A stretch of 64,000 bases of DNA from Vicinamibacterales bacterium. GTDB taxonomy: Bacteria; Acidobacteriota; Vicinamibacteria; Vicinamibacterales; UBA8438. Below are positions 1 through 16,183 of this stretch, piece by piece. The translations under genes were made by a program, and so were the position numbers. Below the pieces are notes generated by a model. That model saw nothing but the letters and a program-made list of their open reading frames with translations. It did no database searches and was not told the origin of the DNA. Where the stretch lies: positions 132,638 through 196,637 of the forward strand of contig CBDBOU010000003.1 in the NCBI GenBank assembly GCA_965208535.1. The letters run 5' to 3'. The number at the start of each line of letters is the position of its first letter. The first letter of the stretch is position 1.

Positions 1-349
1 CGCTCTTCGTCCTCGATCAGCTTCCCGCCGATTGCCAGCAGCGTGTCCTCGCCGTAGTGCTCGGGTCGGCGGTCGCGGTAGTCGCCCGGTCGGATGACGC
101 AGAAGACGCGTCGGCGTTCCGAACGGATCAATCGAAGGTGAGACGCACGTTCAGGCAGGCCGGGAGATCGGGTCGGTTCCGAATCGAATACAAGCACGCG
201 GTTCCTCGTGCGATCCAGTTCCGTTTTTTCCCATGACGCCAGGAAGATGTCTCCGGATGGGGCGACGGCTCCCCAGGACCACCGGGCCTGGAGCCGTGCG
301 CCCAAGTAATCGAAGAACTCCCTGAACTTCATCGTCAACTTCCGTCGGT

Positions 350-562
350 CTACAGTAAATCGCCCAGGATGCCCCGATCCAGCATGCGGGTGTCGTGGTT
401 GCGCTGCATCTCGTCGACAAGGGCATCCAGGGCGGCGGCGCAACGCGTCTTGTAGATCAGGCGCCATGAGTGCCCACCGTTGGGCAGCTTCTCGGCTCCC
501 TCGCGGATCAGCTTGCGTGCTTCGCAGGCCAGATCCATCAGGCGCTTGTCGAACTCGGACAT
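350..562 (-). CDS. Small hypothetical protein (70 aa), mobile-element-like
   Basis: ORF track; tightly packed (8-nt gap) behind 571-858 on the same strand; helical, charged composition. Confidence 0.45.
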   Translation of the reverse strand: MSEFDKRLMDLACEARKLIREGAEKLPNGGHSWRLIYKTRCAAALDALVDEMQRNHDTRMLDRGILGDLL

Positions 563-570
563 CGGCGTGG

Positions 571-858
571 TCAGTCGGTTGGCTCGTCGATCAGAAGATG
601 CTTCCGTCGATTCAGGAAGCTACTGATCTTGGATCGACTCTGTTGCAGATCGTAGACAAGGTCAGCGACTTCATCGGGCACTTCAAGTTGGTACTCGTCG
701 CCCTGTTTCGGTGTGACATCCAAGCCTGTCTCGGTCCGTCGTACCAAGGTTTCGATATCCTGCTTCAGGATCGCGACGGCTTTGGTCAGGTCCTCGGCCA
801 ACCGTGCGGCCTTCGATTCGAGGCAGGCCAAGTGCTTCCGCTCACTGAGCGTGCCCAT
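571..858 (-). CDS. Small hypothetical coiled-coil protein (95 aa)
   Basis: ORF track; heptad-like LESKAARLAEDLTKAVAILKQDIETL. Confidence 0.5.
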   Translation of the reverse strand: MGTLSERKHLACLESKAARLAEDLTKAVAILKQDIETLVRRTETGLDVTPKQGDEYQLEVPDEVADLVYDLQQSRSKISSFLNRRKHLLIDEPTD

Positions 859-958
859 GAATGACTTGCAGGATCTCCGCGTTTTGGTCCGCAGCCGTCA
901 TCAACCGGTCAGTGTAGCATGCGTCCTGACCGGCGCTCGGCATACTGGAGGAGACTCG

Positions 959-1126
959 ATGTCTGGACTGATCACGATCACCATCACGGAGCACCTGAAC
1001 GCAGATCAGGATCGGGACTGGCTGAAGCGCAAGGTCTTCCTGGAGCCGAAGGATCTGAGGAAGTTCATCACGGCTGTCAGCACCGTGATCGACCAAGCCG
1101 GAGAGGACGATCCTACCGAATCGTAG
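959..1126 (+). CDS. Small hypothetical protein (55 aa)
   Basis: ATG at 959 preceded by GGAGGAG ribosome-binding site; in frame with ORF 713-1126. Confidence 0.5.
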   Translation: MSGLITITITEHLNADQDRDWLKRKVFLEPKDLRKFITAVSTVIDQAGEDDPTES

Positions 1127-1337
1127 CCAGGAGTCGTTCGCCGCGCCCTGGTGTGCGCTGGTCCTTGGGCACGTCGAGTAGGGCGTCGAGCAGTTCCTCG
1201 AACGTGGCGTCGATGCCCAGGGGCTCCTCGAGTTCGGCCTGGGTCGGCTGGTACTCGGGGTCCATCTTCGACATCTGCGAGTTCTTGCTCGGAGGCCTCT
1301 GAGGCTTGGTTGCTGGCTCCTTCATGGCGACCAGCAT
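1113..1337 (-). CDS. Small acidic hypothetical protein (YQPTQAELEE...IDATFEELLDALL)
   Basis: ORF track; resembles short ORFs I recall beside IS1595-family elements (unverified). Confidence 0.45.
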   Translation of the reverse strand: MLVAMKEPATKPQRPPSKNSQMSKMDPEYQPTQAELEEPLGIDATFEELLDALLDVPKDQRTPGRGERLLATIR

Positions 1338-1396
1338 AGCACTTTTCTGCGTTCAACCGTTTGACGACAGAAGTTCGATCGGCGTAGCCTGAACTC

Positions 1397-1506
1397 GCCA
1401 GACAAGATGCGCGTGGCCCGACACCGGGCCGCCCGCTGACTACAACACCCGGCGCTCGTCGGGGAACAGGCGGGAGTCCGCACAGTACACGTGCGTCTTG
1501 TCTGGC
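1397..1506. repeat. 110-bp segment bounded by 19-bp inverted repeats
   Basis: GCCAGACAAGATGCGCGTG (1397-1415) vs reverse complement of 1488-1506 GCCAGACAAGACGCACGTG, 17/19 match. Confidence 0.7.
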
Positions 1507-1554
1507 AACCGGCCCGGTGACCACTTCAGGTCAGGGCCGATGGAGCCTGACACG

Positions 1555-2184
1555 ATGCACCGACAGATCCCATCACTGTCGAGGCGGACCGCGCTGATCT
1601 TCACCGTCGGTCTCGTCTGCACCGCCGGACTGATCTCCGGATGTTCGTCCGGAGAGTTCTCGTCGAGCAACAGCAGCAGATCCGGACGCCAGATGGATCT
1701 CGATCCTGCGGACCGCTGGCGTGCCGAGCTTGACCGGCGTCAGGCTGCAATAGAGCGAACGGCAACCAGGCGGTCAGAAGCAGTCCGGGAGTCGACGCCA
1801 GCCCCGTCGCCGGCCGTCTCGAGTCAGGATCCCCGAACGCGGTGGCAGAATCCGGAACCGGGAATGGCGGCGGCGTGCAGTCCGACGCATGTCGGAGTGC
1901 GAGCGTGCATCGGTGTCGTCGGCAATCCGCGGATGGTACTGATCGAGTCGAACCTGCATCTGCTGGCGGGCGACATCGTCAGGATGACGATCGACGCCAT
2001 CGGGTTCTTCACGGCCCGTGCCGAGCGGGATATGGGCAACGTCGCCTGGGTCGGTGTCGAAGCCGAACAGATGATTGCCGCCTTGCGCGCCGGCAACGAA
2101 GCCGTCATCACGCATGCCGACGGCGTCGAGTTCCGGGTCAGTCTGGGCGGATCGTCCGCCGCGATCGACCGGGCGCTGCGGTGA
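1555..2184 (+). CDS. Putative lipoprotein, hypothetical
   Basis: Hydrophobic signal and lipobox-like LISGC; C-terminal ALRAG...SLGGSSAAI pattern; start uncertain (1498 or 1555). Confidence 0.6.
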   Translation: MHRQIPSLSRRTALIFTVGLVCTAGLISGCSSGEFSSSNSSRSGRQMDLDPADRWRAELDRRQAAIERTATRRSEAVRESTPAPSPAVSSQDPRTRWQNPEPGMAAACSPTHVGVRACIGVVGNPRMVLIESNLHLLAGDIVRMTIDAIGFFTARAERDMGNVAWVGVEAEQMIAALRAGNEAVITHADGVEFRVSLGGSSAAIDRALR

Positions 2185-2425
2185 TCCGTCATGACTGGAG
2201 GCGCGGGAAACTCGACCCGCAATGTTGTGGGAGAAACCCGGATCAGACTGTTGAAATGGACAACATTCTGTTGAAGAGTCGAACGCCCGGCACGCACTGC
2301 GAGGGGCAGTGGCGCCGGGACCTCAAGGCAGGTGACAAGGCCGCTCGTGGAGATGAGGGTGACCGTCAGATGTGAACAGCCAAAAGCGTTGATCGAGCTT
2401 GCGCCTCGCGGAACCAGCTTGCGGA

Positions 2426-3550
2426 CTACCCAAGCGCCGCCGACCCGGCGGGGCTTTGCACGGTCAGTTCGCCGAAATCGTAAACGCTCCGGACTAGCGC
2501 CTGTACTTTGTCGAGCGCCGGCCGGTCTCCCGCCGCGAACGAGCACATCGCGTGAATCGTGTCGGCAACGCCTTCTCGCAGCGCCGGGAGTTCGTACGCA
2601 CGCGCTCCAACTGCCTGCGGTGCTGGAGGCTCCCCGGTCAGCATCTCGATCCAAGCCACGCCAAGACTGTAGATGTCAGACTCCGGCTCGGCCCCGTGAG
2701 CATGCTGCTGCTGCTCGGGGGCCACATAGTACCACGAGCCCAGCTGCAGTGACTGCCGAGTGATCGCGCCCGCGTGCGTCACGAGGGGATCGAAGTCATT
2801 CCACCTCACCACACCAAGGTCGCTCAGCTTGTACGTATCCGCGAACTCGAGGATGTTGGCCGGCTTTACGTCGCGGTGAACGTGGCCTCTGCCATGGATG
2901 TACCTGAGCCCCTCGATGCAGCAGTCAATGATCTCCGCGGCTTCTTCCTCTGGAACGGGGCTGTCGGACTTGAGGCGATCTGCCACAGATCGATCCGCAA
3001 GTTCCATGATCAGGAACGGGTGCTTCTCGGTCTGACCTCGGTCCAGGTACCGCACAATGTTCGGGTGCTGGAGAGTCTGCCCGTACTTGGACTCGTTGCG
3101 AAAGCGTTGACGGATGTCCGGCATCTTGGAGCCCTGCAAGAAATCGGTCTTGGGCAGCATGACCTTGGCTGCATACCGAACATTGTTGTTCGCCTTTGCG
3201 ACCCACACTTGGCCGATCGCGCCCGCGCCGATCTGCTGATCCAGGTAGTAGGTTTCGTGCTCACCAACGAACCTGTCGCCTGGCGCGATAACGATGGTTC
3301 GTGGCGCTTGCTGCGTGAAGGTCTCGTCGAAGAATTGCTCCTCAATGTCCGACCCATCTAATCTCACCTGTAGTCGCCGGTCCTTCAACCTGAGGAGGAA
3401 CGGGGCGATCTTATTCTTGTGAATGTACGTCACTAGCGAGGACTCGGACCAACCCGTGACCTGCTTCACGTGTTCGTACGTGACCACCGTTCCGGCAGTC
3501 TGCTGCCGGAGCCACTCAAACAAGCGCTGCGAACCCTTCGTGAGCACCAT
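2426..3550 (-). CDS. Soluble Hanks-type Ser/Thr protein kinase with N-terminal putative winged-helix domain
   Basis: GAGAIG, AAK, HPNIV, HRDVKPANIL, SDLG, YVAPE, SDIYSLG motifs; ATG 1 nt after the MTase stop; no transmembrane segment. Confidence 0.92.
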   Translation of the reverse strand: MVLTKGSQRLFEWLRQQTAGTVVTYEHVKQVTGWSESSLVTYIHKNKIAPFLLRLKDRRLQVRLDGSDIEEQFFDETFTQQAPRTIVIAPGDRFVGEHETYYLDQQIGAGAIGQVWVAKANNNVRYAAKVMLPKTDFLQGSKMPDIRQRFRNESKYGQTLQHPNIVRYLDRGQTEKHPFLIMELADRSVADRLKSDSPVPEEEAAEIIDCCIEGLRYIHGRGHVHRDVKPANILEFADTYKLSDLGVVRWNDFDPLVTHAGAITRQSLQLGSWYYVAPEQQQHAHGAEPESDIYSLGVAWIEMLTGEPPAPQAVGARAYELPALREGVADTIHAMCSFAAGDRPALDKVQALVRSVYDFGELTVQSPAGSAALG

Positions 3551-3551
3551 C

Positions 3552-4259
3552 TCACTGCCCCTCTTGTTGAAGCCTCTGGCGTGCGACCTCGATGGCCTTG
3601 CCGCAGACATCGTTCCCCAGGAATCTCCTGCCGTGCCGCAAGGCCGCGACGCCAGTCGATGCGGATCCCATAAACGGATCGATCACGGTTTCCTGTCGTT
3701 CCGTACTCTGACAGATCAAGACCTCGGCGACCTCCACGGGCTTTTCGGCCGGATAGCCGTTGTGCAGGCGCGGCACCTGGATGACATCCGGCACTCCGAG
3801 ATCGTTGAGCCTGCGCTTGCCCTTCTCGAAGAACAGGACGAACTCGTATCGCGCTCGGTAGTGATACCCCATGCCGATCTTCATCTTGTCCCAAACCAAG
3901 GGCTTCCAGAATCGAAAGCCGGCCTGCTCGGCTATCGGCTTCACGACGAACATGGTCTCCTGGTCGCAGAACAGGTAGAGATGGCGGTCGCGCCGCAAGA
4001 CCCTGTACAGCTCTTCGAGCAATTCCCGAAACCGCGCGTTGGGAAAAACGCGGAACCACTCGTTGCTTGAGGACTTGCTGACCTTTAGGCGCGTCGTTGT
4101 GCCGATGGCGCGGTGTTTCTCCAGGGACTCGTACGGCGGATCCGTTACGATGAGGTCTACCGATTCGTCAGAAAGTCCCCTGAGCCATTCGACAGCATCA
4201 GCGCGCGAGAGTTGGGCCGGCTCGGGCTTGACCTCTCGCAACAGCGGTGAACTTGCCAT
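3552..4259 (-). CDS. Site-specific DNA methyltransferase (N4-C/N6-A, beta class)
   Basis: Motif IV DPPY near the N-terminus and motif I DPFMGSAS near the C-terminus; PAEKP; start probably ATG 4259. Confidence 0.93.
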   Translation of the reverse strand: MASSPLLREVKPEPAQLSRADAVEWLRGLSDESVDLIVTDPPYESLEKHRAIGTTTRLKVSKSSSNEWFRVFPNARFRELLEELYRVLRRDRHLYLFCDQETMFVVKPIAEQAGFRFWKPLVWDKMKIGMGYHYRARYEFVLFFEKGKRRLNDLGVPDVIQVPRLHNGYPAEKPVEVAEVLICQSTERQETVIDPFMGSASTGVAALRHGRRFLGNDVCGKAIEVARQRLQQEGQ

Positions 4260-4579
4260 TACCGCGGGGACAATACTCCACAACCGGCGGTAAGTCAACG
4301 AGTTACGCAGATCAGCGCGAGGGGCTTCGGCCAACAGCTTGAGGCCGGCGGCCGGCACCGAGCCCCACGAGGCCGCCCATAACAGGCGCGCGATTCCCAT
4401 GCGGGCGAGCCCTGCGAGAGCGTGCGATCCGAGTGTTCCACGGCTCCACGTGGAACGCCGAACTGTTCCACGGTGCTGCCAAGCCTGCTGGAGGCTAACC
4501 CGGCGCGCTCGATCCGTGGCCGGAACTGCTCGACCTCGGACTCGGCCGCCTCGAGGCGATCGAGGCGACAGGCCGCAGG

Positions 4580-5128
4580 ATGAGCGCAGGCGCCATAACC
4601 CGACTCCCCATCACGCTCGATGTCCGCACGCTGGAGCGAGCTCGGGTCGCCGCCGCGGCTGAGGGACTGACGATCCCGGCCTTCATCTCCAAGTTCGTCG
4701 CGGACGCGCTGTCTCAGCAGCAGCCCGAGTCCCCCGGAGGGCGTAGCACGCCTCGTCGCTGGACACGTCGCGCGCCTGGCGCAATCGCCTGCAATGCGCC
4801 GGCCGCGCAAAGGGGCTCGACGTGCCAGCGTTTCCGCCGCGCTTCTCTTCGTCGGTCATCGTCACGACTCCTTCTTCTCCCGTCGCCGGTGTCTCCAGTG
4901 TACCGGCGGCTTCCAGCCAAGAGCGATCTTGGCGGCGCGCTGGCCGTGCTTGACGAGTTCAGCATAGGGCAGCACCCGACCGTCGGCACCCCGGACCATC
5001 AGGGCGATCTGTTCGATCGTGTCGAAGGGACGGCAGTTGTGCCTGGCTTCGAACTCGGTCACGTACCGGTGCAGATGCTCCCACGACATCCAGTGATACA
5101 CGCCGACGTAGCCACGCTTCACCATTGA
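4580..5128 (+). CDS. Possible ribbon-helix-helix protein (first ~46 aa); the rest of the ORF runs antisense into the transposase
   Basis: TRLPITLD-helix-GLTIPAFISKFVADAL pattern. Confidence 0.3.
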   Translation: MSAGAITRLPITLDVRTLERARVAAAAEGLTIPAFISKFVADALSQQQPESPGGRSTPRRWTRRAPGAIACNAPAAQRGSTCQRFRRASLRRSSSRLLLLPSPVSPVYRRLPAKSDLGGALAVLDEFSIGQHPTVGTPDHQGDLFDRVEGTAVVPGFELGHVPVQMLPRHPVIHADVATLHH

Positions 5129-5899
5129 CCAGAACGACTCGATGCCGTTCGTGTGGGCCTGACCGTTGACGTACTCTCGGGCGCGGTGCTTCACCGCGGC
5201 GTGGTTCGGCAGGTTCTCGTAGGCGGGGGATTCGTCGGTGTAGAGCGGCGTGTGTTCGTTCCGGAACCGTTCAACGAACTCGCGCAGGGCTTCGCCGTTC
5301 ACGGTGCCGACGACGTGGATTCGGACCTGCTTTGTGTGCCGATCCTTGACGCCGGCGATGGCGATCTTGTTCACGGTCGGCCCCTGGCCCTTGAACTGCT
5401 TGCGCCGGCTGGCGCTCATCTTGCTGAGCTTCCCGCCAATCCATGCTTCATCAGCTTCCAGAGGTCCATCGAAGACTTCGTCCTTGTCATGGTCGCGGCG
5501 CCACATCTCCCGGATCCGGTGCCCCATGAACCACGCCGACTTCTGCGAGATCCCAAGGTCGCGGTGGATTCTCAGGCTCGATACGCCCTTGATGCCGACC
5601 GAGTGCAGGTACATCGCGATCAACCAATCCTGAAGCGTGATCTTGCTGTTCTGCATCGGTGTGCCGGTGCGGACCGAGAAGAACTTCCGGCAGTCCCGAC
5701 ACTGGAACGGCATCTTCTTGTGCTTGGTCTTGGTCAGGACGTTCATCGATCCGCAGCCATCGCGCGGGCAGGCGATGCCGTTCGGCCACCGCCATCGGAT
5801 GAGGGTCTTTTCGGCCGCAGCGTCAGTAGGCCATCGCTTGAACAGCTTCTTCAGCGAGATCCCTTTGCGGTCCGCCCGGCCCGGTCCCTTGGAGGACAT
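4862..5899 (-). mobile_element. IS1595-family (ISXO2-like) DDE transposase
   Basis: Zn ribbon CPRDGCG...CRDC; EADEAWIGG, YTDESPAY, HTNGIESFWS; terminal inverted repeats not resolved. Confidence 0.92.
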
Positions 5900-6498
5900 A
5901 GGGATATGCTGAACGAGAGGCACTTCGTATGGCAAGCTGTAACTCACAGAAAAATAACGACTTATCCTCCTTGAACAGGTTTCGGAGCGAAAGGTCGATC
6001 CATGCTACTGGATCGATCGGACTCTGGACGGGCCGATGACGCGATCTAGGTCTGCGCGGACCTGGGCGAGCGCCGTCTGTGCGGCATGCGCGTTGCCTCG
6101 GGACTGGTGCTCGCGGGCGGCGTGCAGCAGTGCACCGGACGTGTGTCGGAACTCCTCGAGGCGGTCAGATGCCCACGTACAGAAGGCTGTCTGCGTCGAC
6201 TCCAGGATTTCGATCTGTTCGTTGAGTGACTGGCCGGTGGACACCGGCTGAGGCAGTGTGGCAGAATTCGAATGCGGCAACGCCGTATCTCCAGCGGGTC
6301 GCCTTCGGTTTTCAGCCTAGCCAAGACTTCGGCCGAGGGCGCCCGCGCCAATTCACCCCCACAACACGCGAGGATGCACCTACAGTACCGGCTCGGGCCG
6401 ACGCCGGTCAAGCGATCCGGATCAGGTTATTTTCAACTACCTGGCAGGGGCATGAATACGCCGAAACCGCCCGACTGGATTGATCTTTTCGCTCGCTC

Positions 6499-7056
6499 GT
6501 GATCACCCAGGGTTATAGTCCCCTTCTCGCTCACGCTCCCGTGACTCGTGAACAGCACGAGGCCTTTCGAACTTGGCTCGGGCGCTTCGCGGAGTGGCTG
6601 TTCAATACGGATCACATAGTGGTTAGGTATGGGATTACCTACGATGGTGTTGACATCGAAAAGCTGTCGCCTGGAACCCGCGGCATAGTTCTCTTGCTTC
6701 TCTATCTGGCGCTCGACGATGACGATGACAGGCCGCTGATTATCGACCAGCCTGAGGAGAACCTGGACCCCCAATCGGTGTTCGACGAACTGGTCCCGAC
6801 GTTCATGGAGGCTAAGGCAAGGCGGCAGGTTGTCATGGTGACGCACAACGGGAATCTGGTCATTAACACAGACGCAGATCAGGTCATCATTGCGGACGCG
6901 GAGCCGCAACCTCATGGTGGTCTCCCACGGCTCACATACCGCGCGGGCGGTCTAGACAATGCCGCGATTCGAAAAGCGGTCTGTGACATTCTCGAGGGCG
7001 GCGAACGTGCGTTCCAGGAACGTGCGCGGCGATTGCGCGTGCGCCTGGAGCGGTAG
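6499..7056 (+). pseudogene. C-terminal remnant of an ABC-type ATPase of the PHP-ATPase (Ppl/TrlF-like) kind
   Basis: Signature LSPGTRG, Walker B IIDQPE, H-loop VTH; Walker A and N-terminal domains absent; in-frame TGA at 6481-6483 just upstream. Confidence 0.7.
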
Positions 7057-7130
7057 GTATGGCGATTCGGATCCGGATGACATCTTGCTGGTGCGAGTCC
7101 CTGGCGGCTCAAACACGATCGTGAATCGAG

Positions 7131-13390: not shown

Positions 13391-16183
13391 TCAGGGGATC
13401 GGGACCCGCTCGGCGAGCTCCGTGAACCAGTTGCCGACGTAGACGAGCTCTGCCGCTCCCAGGCGCGGATCGCTCCCCGTCGGGTCTTCGTCCGTCTCCC
13501 GGAGCATGACGAAGCGCTCGCCGTCCGGCGCGACGTCCCACTCCCGGTAGGGGGTGCCGATCTGGATGCCGCCCGGTAACGCGAACAGCCGTTCCGGACG
13601 TGACGGCGTGAAGGTCGGATCGCCGGCGTACCCGACCGCCATCATCGCCCTCCCGTTCGGGCCGGCCGCCACGTAGAAGAGCTCCCGGCCGTCCCGCGAC
13701 CACACCGGCGAGAAGCCGGTGCCCGGCGACACCTGCCACTTCCCGTCGTCGACGTTCGGGAACGGCCGCACGTAGATGGCCCAGCGGCCGGACTCGTTGG
13801 ACTGGTAGGCGATCCAGCGGCCGTCCGGCGAGACTCCCGGCAGGGTCTCCACGACCGGGGTCGCAATCAGTGGTTGCGAGGCGCGGTCGCCGTCGAGCGG
13901 CAGCAGGTGGATGTCGGCGTTCGTCATGCCGGCCGCGTGCGTGACGACCAGCGTGTCCGGGCCGCCCGCCCAGTCGGAGACCATCCGCACCACGGGCTGG
14001 CTCCCGGTCAGTCGTTCCGCCTGTCCGGTGCCGTCCGCCGCCTTGCGGAACAGCCCGAAGCCGTCGTCTTCGACGGAGGTGAACACGACGCGGCGGCCGT
14101 CCGGCGACCAGAGCGGATTGATGTTCCATCCCTCGAAGGTCAGACGGTTCGAGACCTCGCGGGCGACATCGTAGACCACGATGTCGGCGCTGCCGCCGTC
14201 GTCGATGACGTCCAGCGCGATGCGATCGCCGGTGGGCGAGATGCGCGGGGTGCTGTACGCGCGCGGCGGGGTCGGGACCGGGTCCTCGCGCCCGTCGCGG
14301 TCGATCCACACCAGCCTCCTGCGGCTTTCGGACGCACCGTCGTCCGTGTCCGCCGAGTAGACGAGCGTGCCGTCGGCTGACCAGGCGCTGGAGCCGGCGT
14401 TCGGGACGACGGCTACCGGCGCGCGGGCAAGCTCCAGGCGTTCGGGGTCGAACGGCGCCGCCAGCAGCGTCGTGGTCCGGGACCCGGGCCGTCCGGCTGC
14501 CGGCCGGATCGACCGCTGGAGCAGCAGGTGGCCCGTCGGCGTGTAGGTCGCTCCCGCCACGTCGGACGCCACGATCCGCGATTTCGCGTTGGCCAGCGAC
14601 AGGGCTTTCAGTTGCGAGCCTCCGTCGGTCGAGAGCTCGGCGTACAGCAGCGCACGCGAACCGGGCAGCACATGGGGCGCCGAGCAGACGGTCACTTCCG
14701 GCACCGCGCCGGCCGGCAGCACCGCCTCGGGCGTCCCGCCGGCGGCAGGCACGCGCAGCAGGCCGCCGAGAGCGCCGAGCACGATGCCGTCGTCGTCGCC
14801 CCAGCTTCCGCGCAGCGCGGGGACGTTGTCGGCCAGCGTCACGGCCGCGCCCCCGCGAATCGGCACCCGCTTGAGCGTCCAGCGGTACTGGATCCGGTCC
14901 GATCCTCCAGCGGGGCCGGAGCCGGCGAAGAATCCAATCCAGGTCCCGTCCGGCGAGAAGAACGGATCGAGCGCGCCTTCCGTGCCGTCCAGCTCCCAGG
15001 CATCGCCCTCGTTCAGGTGCCGGACCATCAACTGTCGCGTCCGGCCGCCGGCAGTGCGACCGACGTAGGCCAGCGTCGAGCCGTCGGGCGAGAGGGCGAA
15101 CCCGGAGCCGCGCGCCATCGGAGACGGCAGGTCGAGGGTGAGGCGCCGGACCGCTGGCGGCTCGGGCGCGGGCGCGAGGGTCCAGAACGTGGCTGCGGCC
15201 GCGAGGCAGCCGAGCAACAGGCCGCCGGCCGCCCAGGCGGTCCGTGCCCGCCATCCGCGGAGCGGGGAGGGCGATGCGGCATCGCCGGCCGAGGCTTCCG
15301 GCAGCGCCTCGGAAGGGGAAGCGGCGGCTTCCAGGTCGCTGAGCGCCTCGCCCGCGTCGCGCATCCGCCGCCGCCGGTCGCGTTGGAGGCAGCGGCCGAG
15401 CAGCCGCCGGACGGGTCGCGGGGTCGGTGACGGCAGGGCCGACAGGTCGAGGTCGCGGTCGATGACGCGGGCCAGCACCTGCGCCACCGTCTCGCCGGAG
15501 AAGAGACGCTCGCCGGCGAGCATCTCGTAGAGCACGACGCCGAACGACCAGAGGTCCCCGCGGGTGTCGGTCGGCTGCCCTTCCGCCTGCTCGGGCGACA
15601 TGTAGGCCGGCGTCCCCAGGATCAGGCCGTCGCCCATCCGGGTCACCGAAGCGGTCAGCGTCGGCGACTGCAACGGGTCCGCGTCGGGGGGCGCCGGCGC
15701 CGTGTCCAGCGCCTTGGCCAGGCCGAAGTCGAGGACCTTCACGGTCCCGTCCTCGCGCACCTTGACGTTGGCGGGCTTCAGATCCCGGTGGATCACGCCC
15801 GCGTCGTGCGCGGCCTGCAGCGCCAGGGCGATCTGCCGCGCGATGGACAGCACCTCGTCGAGGGGAATCGGCCCCTGCTCGAGGCGGTCGGCGAGGGTCG
15901 GCCCTTCGACCAGCTCCAGGACCAGCGCGCGCGTGCCGCCGGTCTCCTCGATGCCGTGGATCTGGGCGATGTTCGGGTGGTTCAGCGAGGCGAGGACGCG
16001 GGCCTCCCGCTCGAAGCGCGCCAGCCGGTCCGGGTCGGCGGTGAACGCGGCGGGCAGCACCTTCAGCGCGATGTCGCGGTCGAGCTTCATGTCGCGGGCG
16101 CGGTACACCTCGCCCATGCCGCCGGCCCCGAGCGGGCCGGTGACGTCGTATGCGCCGATCCGTGTTCCGGGCGTCAACGGCAT
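13391..16183 (-). CDS. Membrane Ser/Thr kinase with C-terminal TolB-like (PD40) beta-propeller
   Basis: GAGGMG, HRDLKPAN, DFG, YMSPE; one transmembrane helix; repeated SPDG/SPTG motifs. Confidence 0.93.
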   Translation of the reverse strand: MPLTPGTRIGAYDVTGPLGAGGMGEVYRARDMKLDRDIALKVLPAAFTADPDRLARFEREARVLASLNHPNIAQIHGIEETGGTRALVLELVEGPTLADRLEQGPIPLDEVLSIARQIALALQAAHDAGVIHRDLKPANVKVREDGTVKVLDFGLAKALDTAPAPPDADPLQSPTLTASVTRMGDGLILGTPAYMSPEQAEGQPTDTRGDLWSFGVVLYEMLAGERLFSGETVAQVLARVIDRDLDLSALPSPTPRPVRRLLGRCLQRDRRRRMRDAGEALSDLEAAASPSEALPEASAGDAASPSPLRGWRARTAWAAGGLLLGCLAAAATFWTLAPAPEPPAVRRLTLDLPSPMARGSGFALSPDGSTLAYVGRTAGGRTRQLMVRHLNEGDAWELDGTEGALDPFFSPDGTWIGFFAGSGPAGGSDRIQYRWTLKRVPIRGGAAVTLADNVPALRGSWGDDDGIVLGALGGLLRVPAAGGTPEAVLPAGAVPEVTVCSAPHVLPGSRALLYAELSTDGGSQLKALSLANAKSRIVASDVAGATYTPTGHLLLQRSIRPAAGRPGSRTTTLLAAPFDPERLELARAPVAVVPNAGSSAWSADGTLVYSADTDDGASESRRRLVWIDRDGREDPVPTPPRAYSTPRISPTGDRIALDVIDDGGSADIVVYDVAREVSNRLTFEGWNINPLWSPDGRRVVFTSVEDDGFGLFRKAADGTGQAERLTGSQPVVRMVSDWAGGPDTLVVTHAAGMTNADIHLLPLDGDRASQPLIATPVVETLPGVSPDGRWIAYQSNESGRWAIYVRPFPNVDDGKWQVSPGTGFSPVWSRDGRELFYVAAGPNGRAMMAVGYAGDPTFTPSRPERLFALPGGIQIGTPYREWDVAPDGERFVMLRETDEDPTGSDPRLGAAELVYVGNWFTELAERVPIP

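Follow-up and report, generated by a model that had tools for sequence, protein, structure and literature searches.

Introduction

Bacterial conflict systems connect DNA modification to an effector in several ways. Type II restriction-modification (R-M) systems place a restriction endonuclease (REase) beside a DNA methyltransferase (MTase), whereas the phage growth limitation system (Pgl, bacteriophage exclusion or BREX type 2) and the methylation-associated defense system (MADS) combine a Ser/Thr kinase with a DNA MTase, PglW with PglX and MAD6 with MAD2, in methylation-based defense. In PrrC/EcoprrI a suicide effector other than a restriction nuclease is genetically linked to the genes for DNA modification, and in PD-T4-6 and Stk2 a soluble Hanks kinase acts as the defense effector. 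Here we describe a pair of genes, encoding a DNA MTase and a Hanks-type Ser/Thr kinase with an N-terminal winged helix-turn-helix (wHTH) domain, in a 64,000-nucleotide (nt) stretch of the genome of a Vicinamibacterales bacterium (Acidobacteriota; assembly GCA_965208535.1, contig CBDBOU010000003.1, positions 132,638 to 196,637), hereafter referred to as the window. We propose that this cassette is a methylation-coupled conflict module, serving defense or addiction, in which the kinase takes the place of the restriction enzyme. Judging from the sequence evidence, we estimate the probability of this reading at roughly 45%.

Like type II R-M systems, the cassette is compact and mobile, its MTase is more conserved than the partner, the orientation of the genes varies and the horizontal spread is patchy. 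Sister loci even hold the same MTase together with a 130-amino-acid (aa) PDDEXK_11 protein. The cassette in the window differs in lacking a nuclease and in having a wHTH-Hanks kinase as the partner; whatever effect it has would therefore be exerted via protein phosphorylation and not via DNA cleavage. The Pgl and MADS systems, of which PglW also carries wHTH modules (PMC12839542), are considerably larger, with 6–8 genes and kinases of 1400–1600 aa (PglW) or about 600 aa (MAD6), and their MTase is not the beta-class enzyme of 235 aa found here. The kinase scores 45.8 bits on the PglW model (NCBIfam NF033442, cut-off 990) and 97.8 bits on the MAD6 model (NF047741, cut-off 460), and both identities were rejected on these scores. 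The neighborhood contains no PglX-, PglY- or PglZ-like genes that would indicate BREX type 2/Pgl and no other mad genes; the PADLOC mad6 and mad2 matches are restricted to the generic kinase and MTase cores.

PD-T4-6 and Stk2 are single-gene systems without an MTase partner, and their models lack an N-terminal wHTH. PADLOC models of PD-T4-6 match our kinase at up to 1e-45 (PDLC04042) and that of Stk2 at 1.8e-19, and the PDLC04042 match spans aa 99–311 only (profile positions 9–213 of 292), leaving the wHTH unmatched. Automated tools would probably label the gene PD-T4-6. PrrC differs in being an ABC-ATPase/HEPN anticodon nuclease that sits on a type I enzyme, whereas the cassette encodes a kinase and a type II-like MTase with no restriction subunit. 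Finally, wHTH fusions and an R-M operon context are listed for the EC042_2821/DUF3644 HEPN family in passages of a survey by Anantharaman et al. (2013, PMC3710099). Our wHTH profile retrieves proteins with the wHTH+DUF3644+EC042_2821 architecture, but their effector is an RNase/REase and the one in the window is a kinase. Those passages contain neither the pair of MTase and wHTH-kinase nor the breadth of the wHTH module, and a literature search of incomplete coverage likewise returned no prior description of the two-gene cassette or of the breadth of the module.

Results

The methyltransferase and the kinase are inherited and moved as a pair

The two genes lie on the minus strand, the MTase at 3552–4259 and the wHTH-kinase, of 374 aa, at 2426–3550. 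A gap of 1 nt separates the last base of the MTase stop codon (3552) from the kinase ATG (3550–3548). The limits of the cassette were given by its closest relative with flanks, locus L069, whose kinase is 83% identical at the amino acid level: blastn found 87% nucleotide identity across exactly 2412–4325 of the minus strand, and the flanks are without homology. Compared with L069, the MTase has a ratio of nonsynonymous to synonymous substitution rates (dN/dS) of 0.15 and the kinase (whole gene) one of 0.27, so that purifying selection acts on both. The two genes are inherited, conserved and moved together.

To determine how often the pair occurs, as a first-pass annotation of the window (made from the sequence alone) had suggested by a gene-neighborhood search, we searched a collection of 5.8 billion proteins for the kinase family and fetched 37 genome loci. 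The family (about 360 aa, 95% of the query covered) comprises more than 100 clusters with 38–86% identity. In 21 of the 37 fetched loci the same beta-class MTase (65–79% identity) stands beside the kinase (38–66%), the MTase being the better conserved of the two. The pair was found in Acidobacteriota, Pseudomonadota, Cyanobacteriota and Myxococcota. This recurrence in dozens of independent assemblies puts the pairing far beyond chance. Gene order is variable: the beta-class MTase is mostly upstream on the same strand, yet it is also found downstream (L008), convergent (L017, L018, L025) or divergent (L027, L031), and in L024 an insertion sequence (IS) element separates the two genes. In 5 more wHTH-kinase loci, as well as beside a kinase fragment (L032), a Dam-family MTase scoring above the TIGR00571 cut-off replaces the beta-class enzyme, and in L026 the partner is an MTS-domain protein. 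Four wHTH-kinase loci in which no MTase was found (L004, L016, L019, L022) are ended by a contig edge. Two kinases lack the wHTH, one with a beta-class MTase present (L028) and one with no MTase within reach (L029). That MTases of at least two unrelated families are found beside the kinase suggests that methylation itself, rather than one partner protein, is the key. In a maximum-likelihood tree of the kinases the clades follow MTase type and orientation while the four phyla are interleaved, a pattern indicating that the pair has been transferred as one module.

No conserved third gene emerged from all-against-all clustering of the open reading frames (ORFs) of the 37 loci or from a Pfam tally of 103 neighbors; PDDEXK_11 proteins, a small protein of about 100 aa and a 146-aa HTH-like protein each occur in subsets of loci only. 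Kinase genes of the Dam-associated clade have directly upstream a gene for a conserved protein of 146–151 aa with weak HTH/wHTH similarity (L021:5529–5969, L022:311–751, L023:2729–3169, L030:1968–2423), and this protein may be a third component of the Dam-associated subtype.

The arrangement of the genes also bears on a different, PrrC-like role, in which a complex with the MTase (or an R-M enzyme) holds the kinase inactive and the wHTH only keeps the complex on DNA. Once that enzyme is disabled, by an anti-restriction protein of a phage or by depletion of S-adenosylmethionine, the kinase would be released and abortive infection would follow. Such a guard role was proposed in 2013 for R-M-linked HEPN proteins (Anantharaman et al., PMC3710099), and that family has the same wHTH. 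The genes are near enough for translational coupling (the 1-nt gap in the window; overlapping genes in L069), and an invariant wHTH helix, described below, suits a role other than site reading. However, the kinase partners at least two unrelated MTase folds (beta-class N6_N4 and D12 Dam) in every orientation, even with an IS between the genes in L024, and this variety argues against a specific protein-protein lock. Moreover, at most loci, the window included, there is no restriction enzyme to guard. We regard a guarded kinase as unlikely.

The pair is a patchy, mobile element

Several observations support the view, based on sequence comparison, that the pair is a patchily distributed and horizontally moved accessory element. 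The L069 pair adjoins an integrase and an IS66 element and the L070 pair adjoins two IS1595 copies, while in 26 other loci the neighbors are unrelated and mostly housekeeping genes, with some IS or integrase genes. The host genome of 8.4 Mb has one copy of the cassette. Searches of plasmid and phage collections returned matches to the kinase domain only, with no family members on plasmids. The one full-length member in IMG/VR is on a contig of 113,599 bp that is probably a contig of Leptolyngbya sp. FACHB-541.

A purely selfish element would look much the same. The kinase would then be a toxin and DNA methylation its epigenetic antidote, and post-segregational killing would stabilize the element with no role in phage defense. 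Addiction-like behavior is known for type II R-M systems. The compact and autonomous 1.9-kb unit with its own putative promoter, its association with IS1595, IS66 and integrase genes, its insertion among housekeeping genes and its patchy, cross-phylum distribution would all fit. On the other hand, the family is missing from the plasmid collection, although plasmids are where addiction pays most, and the same wHTH is found on TIR, HEPN, Schlafen/AlbA_2 and ABC-ATPase effectors typical of anti-phage systems. Addiction alone is in our estimate an improbable explanation; its mechanism also overlaps with that of the conflict module proposed here, and the two are not mutually exclusive.

A beta-class methyltransferase and a soluble Hanks kinase with a winged-helix head

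The MTase matches PF01555 (N6_N4_Mtase) at 3.8e-32 (cut-off 26.7 bits) and the PADLOC MTase_II model at 5.9e-35. Its DPPY motif (motif IV, aa 40–43) is N-terminal to DPFMGSAS (motif I, near aa 194), and this motif order together with the Pfam match places it by sequence in the beta class (N6/N4). DPPY favors N6-adenine, which is probably the target base. Relatives in PDB include the N4-cytosine MTase 8s9m (2e-12), DpnA 5hfj (2.5e-10) and, distantly, CcrM. The ATG at 4259 is taken as the start because the initial MASSPLL is conserved in L069 and a promoter-like site lies just upstream; a longer ORF, opening at 4400, probably goes unused. The promoter-like site (TTGACT-17-TATTGT, 4298–4270 on the minus strand, i.e. 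positions 4270–4298) is a sigma-70 consensus match only. It is the sole such match in window positions 2000–5000, compared with a mean of 0.4 in shuffled sequence, and falls within the block shared with L069.

The kinase domain (aa 98–365, 2456–3259 on the minus strand) matches Pkinase at 1.4e-37 over aa 103–317 and has its catalytic motifs all intact. In an alignment of 33 full-length homologues K129, E153, H225-R226-D227, N232, D244-L245-G246 and E279 are invariant, and the Gly-rich loop (G108–G110) and P278-E279 of the APE motif are invariant or nearly so, features by which the predicted protein qualifies as a Hanks-type Ser/Thr kinase. The top PDB match of the domain is PknB (2.6e-25). No transmembrane segment and no additional domain was found in the protein. 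A second Hanks kinase domain occurs about 12 kb from the cassette, at ~15506–16174 on the minus strand (C3:148143–148811), within an open frame of 1022 aa; it is unrelated, with 36% identity in the kinase core only.

The N-terminal domain (aa 1–83, 3302–3550 on the minus strand) was modeled with AlphaFold2 from an alignment of 26 sequences drawn from the window and the fetched loci. The prediction has a mean pLDDT (per-residue confidence) of 82.6 and consists of helices (H) and strands (S) in the order H(5–15)-S(22–24)-H(25–32)-H(36–44)-S(52–55)-S(59–62)-H(71–79), a model that supports a winged-helix topology, H-S-H-H-S-S, with a fourth helix. Among the top 50 Foldseek matches in PDB listed, almost all are winged-helix proteins and mostly DNA-binding regulators, including CymR/Rrf2, MarR, NadR, BirA, CRP and IclR, with probabilities of 0.9–0.99. 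From this modeled fold alone we infer that the domain may bind DNA. No Pfam model matches the domain at threshold (DUF3489 comes up at 1e-4, under the cut-off), and neither PDB sequences nor PHROGs contain a match.

These results agree with what the first-pass annotation had seen in the sequence, and its coordinates and features are all correct. The beta-class motif order, the placement of the MTase 1 nt before the kinase ATG and the soluble kinase with its full set of catalytic motifs were all confirmed, and the helix-strand-HTH-hairpin pattern noted at the N-terminus corresponds to the AlphaFold2 prediction. The PADLOC search it had called for matched PD-T4-6, Stk2 and mad6 to the kinase core and MTase_II and mad2 to the MTase.

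The winged helix is shared with other effectors and with sister cassettes

We searched the profile of the N-terminal domain against 1.84 billion representative proteins (E <= 1e-3) and retrieved 478 representative clusters. Beyond kinases, the wHTH is fused to TIR_2, to DUF3644 (HEPN) with the REase-like EC042_2821, to SLFN_AlbA_2, to AAA_14/DUF4143 and to AAA_21, and one of the wHTH+SLFN_AlbA_2 proteins also carries an AHJR-like REase domain. It is also joined to a domain of about 200 aa of no assigned family, which we call X. Effectors of the TIR, HEPN, Schlafen/AlbA_2 and ATPase types recur in phage defense, and several are activated by oligomerization. That the wHTH is a module shared with TIR, HEPN, Schlafen/AlbA_2 and ATPase fusions is a point that the first-pass annotation had missed, and this sharing, as seen in the sequences, is the strongest argument for a role in a conflict system. 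Across 146 representative clusters of all architectures the signature residues W34, T/S38, T41, Y42, K45 and T/S79-Q80 are 90–99% conserved. The window protein carries this signature and serves as the seed of a provisional family of MTase-linked wHTH effectors.

Three Acidobacteriota islands (L006, L013, L034) hold a Dam MTase, a beta-class MTase, a wHTH-TIR and a wHTH-kinase together, and those of L006 and L034 additionally hold a wHTH-X. Pairing of a Dam-family with a beta-class enzyme recalls DpnM/DpnA at GATC, a similarity that is a lead only. The wHTH-X cassettes (L047:3883–6262, L058:6346–8652, L059:6193–8479, L061:5305–7687) consist of the wHTH-X gene, a Dam (or other) MTase, and the 130-aa PDDEXK_11 protein and/or the small protein of about 100 aa. 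The X domain has the motifs YEFLLPLT, GGYSIxHVxGRFR, DETTAxVRF and EIWLIE. The model of wHTH-X is confident (pLDDT 84.4), with Foldseek matches in PDB for the wHTH part only and none for X. A long ORF elsewhere in the host genome (C1:77575–79719, plus strand) also contains a TIR-like stretch, with 56% identity to the TIR part of wHTH-TIR; this ORF has no wHTH, and its long C-terminus is unrelated.

A more direct comparison with R-M systems is possible in the sister cassettes of our pair. In one genome (G383) the beta-class MTase is accompanied by the 130-aa PDDEXK_11 (PD-(D/E)xK) protein alone, without a kinase, and in three loci (L015, L017, L028) MTase, PDDEXK_11 protein and kinase occur together. 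This series, from MTase with nuclease, through MTase with both, to MTase with kinase, is the best evidence that the kinase fills the functional slot of the restriction enzyme. The first-pass claim that the kinase stands there instead of a restriction enzyme is thereby supported only indirectly, through sister cassettes in which the same MTase is joined to a PD-(D/E)xK protein with or without the kinase.

Genomic setting in the host

In the host genome, the pair stands out by its GC content of 0.57–0.60, as compared with 0.68–0.72 in the flanking genome. An IS1595-family transposase lies at 4862–5947 on the minus strand (PF12762 and PF12760; NF033547 at 7.4e-45), a single copy in the genome that belongs to the context and not to the system. 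Next, at 6499–7056 on the plus strand, is the C-terminal remnant of a TrlF-family (Ppl-like) defense ATPase, covering positions 789–944 of the 944 of NF045780. The preceding two pieces of the same gene were located in the fetched locus L046 (genome region C3:123168–127609), at L046:9169–10356 (positions 1–365 of NF045780) and L046:12252–13610 (positions 381–785), and an IS4-like transposase (L046:10448–12208) breaks the gene between them. Pieces two and three are separated by an insert of about 11.5 kb and low GC that contains IS66, ORFs of no known family, the cassette and IS1595. As the cassette is inside the insert that splits the TrlF-family gene, the mobile DNA that brought it in also destroyed another defense gene. 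The low GC and both neighbors had been noted correctly in the first-pass annotation. Several ORFs of the insert in window positions 1–2400 and 6005–6280, such as those at 1498–2184 (plus strand) and at 571–858, 3–467 and 6005–6280 (all minus strand), have no match in Pfam, and the ones that were compared with NCBIfam, PADLOC or PHROGs as well gave no match in these. The sequencing runs found for the source sample are of DNA only.

The ORFs of window positions 1–7100 contain no nuclease domain, so that the REase beside the MTase expected of a type II R-M system is missing. This agrees with the earlier remark that no nuclease lies beside the pair: the sole PDDEXK_11 homologue of the host genome is on another contig, C2. 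There, at C2:1169088–1170533 on the minus strand, a Dam-family MTase and a PDDEXK_11 protein (86% identical to the copy in L020) make up a putative type II R-M system that is not close to any wHTH gene; an ORF resembling an ABC-type ATPase follows (C2:1170952–1172076). The observed/expected ratio of GATC in the host genome is 0.91, which is unremarkable and shows no avoidance; CTAG, with a ratio of 0.27, is strongly under-represented.

With the setting established, we also considered that the wHTH-kinase might have no part in conflict and be a transcription factor or signaling kinase that governs the expression or activity of an orphan epigenetic MTase. The structural neighbors of its wHTH are, after all, transcriptional repressors, and orphan MTases with regulatory roles exist, among them CcrM, which is a distant PDB relative. 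Ordinary regulation of this kind is nevertheless very improbable given the distribution: of 401 genomes of the phylum only 6 have the wHTH (and 3 a close homologue of the MTase), all 7 genomes of the same family lack it, the pair has been transferred across phyla, and there are pseudogenized copies. The IS-embedded site inside a broken defense gene and the occurrence of the same wHTH on TIR and HEPN effectors also speak against it.

Discussion

Taken together, the data identify a real, recurrent and mobile two-gene module, which on sequence grounds appears to be a new variant among methylation-associated conflict systems. Under the reading that we prefer, a conflict module with the kinase in the place of the restriction enzyme, the MTase, probably an N6-methyladenine (m6A) enzyme, would mark the host genome as self. 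The wHTH head would read a mark-dependent state of DNA, in the simplest case unmethylated sites of foreign DNA that is entering the cell or has just been replicated. Binding to DNA would then cluster the kinase domains and permit trans-autophosphorylation on the long and conserved activation loop (T258, T264, S267), after which the active kinase would phosphorylate cellular and/or phage proteins, with growth arrest or abortive infection as the outcome. Addiction would come from the same wiring, since loss of the cassette would dilute methylation and the cell would be killed.

Several observations weigh against this proposal. The Foldseek E-values of the wHTH are weak (0.02–0.1) at a TM-score of about 0.5, and winged helices may also bind RNA or protein. 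Of the prediction that the N-terminus is a DNA-binding fold, the winged-helix fold and its mostly DNA-binding neighbors stood up, with the strength of the structural matches as the reservation. The top PDB relative of the MTase is the N4-cytosine enzyme 8s9m, other relatives (DpnA, CcrM) being N6-adenine enzymes. An adjacent MTase is found in the window and in the kinase and X subfamilies, without being universal: wHTH-TIR in L062 and wHTH-AlbA_2 in L063 have none. Most of the neighborhoods are not defense islands. Several kinase copies are decaying while the adjacent MTases are intact or nearly so, the kinases being inactivated by an in-frame stop at the W14 codon (L006:6001–7080), one frameshift (L012:5980–7084) or several frameshifts (L034:6001–7006). 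Finally, the recognition helix is near-invariant across all effectors and MTase partners (W34 96%, T41 91%, Y42 90%, K45 99%), whereas site-specific reading would lead one to expect variation in the helix unless the partner MTases share one target. The invariance implies either one target common to all partner MTases, for example GATC, or a common ligand of the wHTH.

The second of these options keeps alive the idea that the wHTH binds m6A DNA or its breakdown products, in the manner of the DpnI winged helix (Gm6ATC) or of PUA-type sensors of N6-methyl-dAMP (m6-dAMP). The MTase would then supply the signal, and the kinase would fire when phage nucleases degrade the methylated chromosome or when it is displaced from the chromosome. 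A recognition helix and Trp that stay invariant whatever the MTase family would fit one common ligand; the identifiable partners are all adenine-type MTases (DPPY beta-class or Dam-family above the TIGR00571 cut-off), and host Dam could serve the copies without an adjacent MTase. There is also a precedent in a defense module triggered by m6-dAMP, reported in the abstract of a 2026 preprint (10.64898/2026.01.15.699771). Yet the domain resembles no known methyl reader in structure or in sequence, its top Foldseek matches being ordinary repressors and its matches among PDB sequences zero. In addition, wHTH domains are not known as mononucleotide binders, and constitutive binding to self DNA requires an additional switch. 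All in all, we consider sensing of the methyl mark itself to be quite unlikely, and return to a kinase that responds to foreign DNA lacking the mark.

That proposal could be extended from the kinase to the whole set of wHTH fusions. They might form a large and hitherto undescribed class of effector-swapped R-M systems, in which one wHTH reader of adenine methylation is combined with m6A MTases and with interchangeable non-nuclease effectors (Hanks kinase, TIR NADase, HEPN RNase, Schlafen/AlbA_2, ATPases and X). Unmethylated foreign DNA would be the danger signal and would lead to abortive infection rather than to cleavage. This generalization is tentative and on present grounds rather doubtful. 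As for the first-pass annotation, which had proposed a two-gene system with a wHTH sensing unmethylated sites and a kinase triggering abortive infection or dormancy, or else an addiction module, its interpretation is partly supported overall.

If the proposed reading is true, the cassette would represent the smallest case known of self/non-self discrimination based on methylation and wired to a signaling enzyme instead of a nuclease, with 2 genes in 1.9 kb as compared with the 6–8 genes of Pgl/BREX or MADS. The reading of a methyl mark and its conversion to an abortive response could then be tested directly. Current pipelines would call an orphan MTase and a PD-T4-6-like kinase at such loci and miss the system. 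The wHTH head provides a new and easily searchable marker by which kinase, TIR, HEPN and Schlafen effectors are connected with DNA MTases, and as such it could expose many unannotated immune genes.

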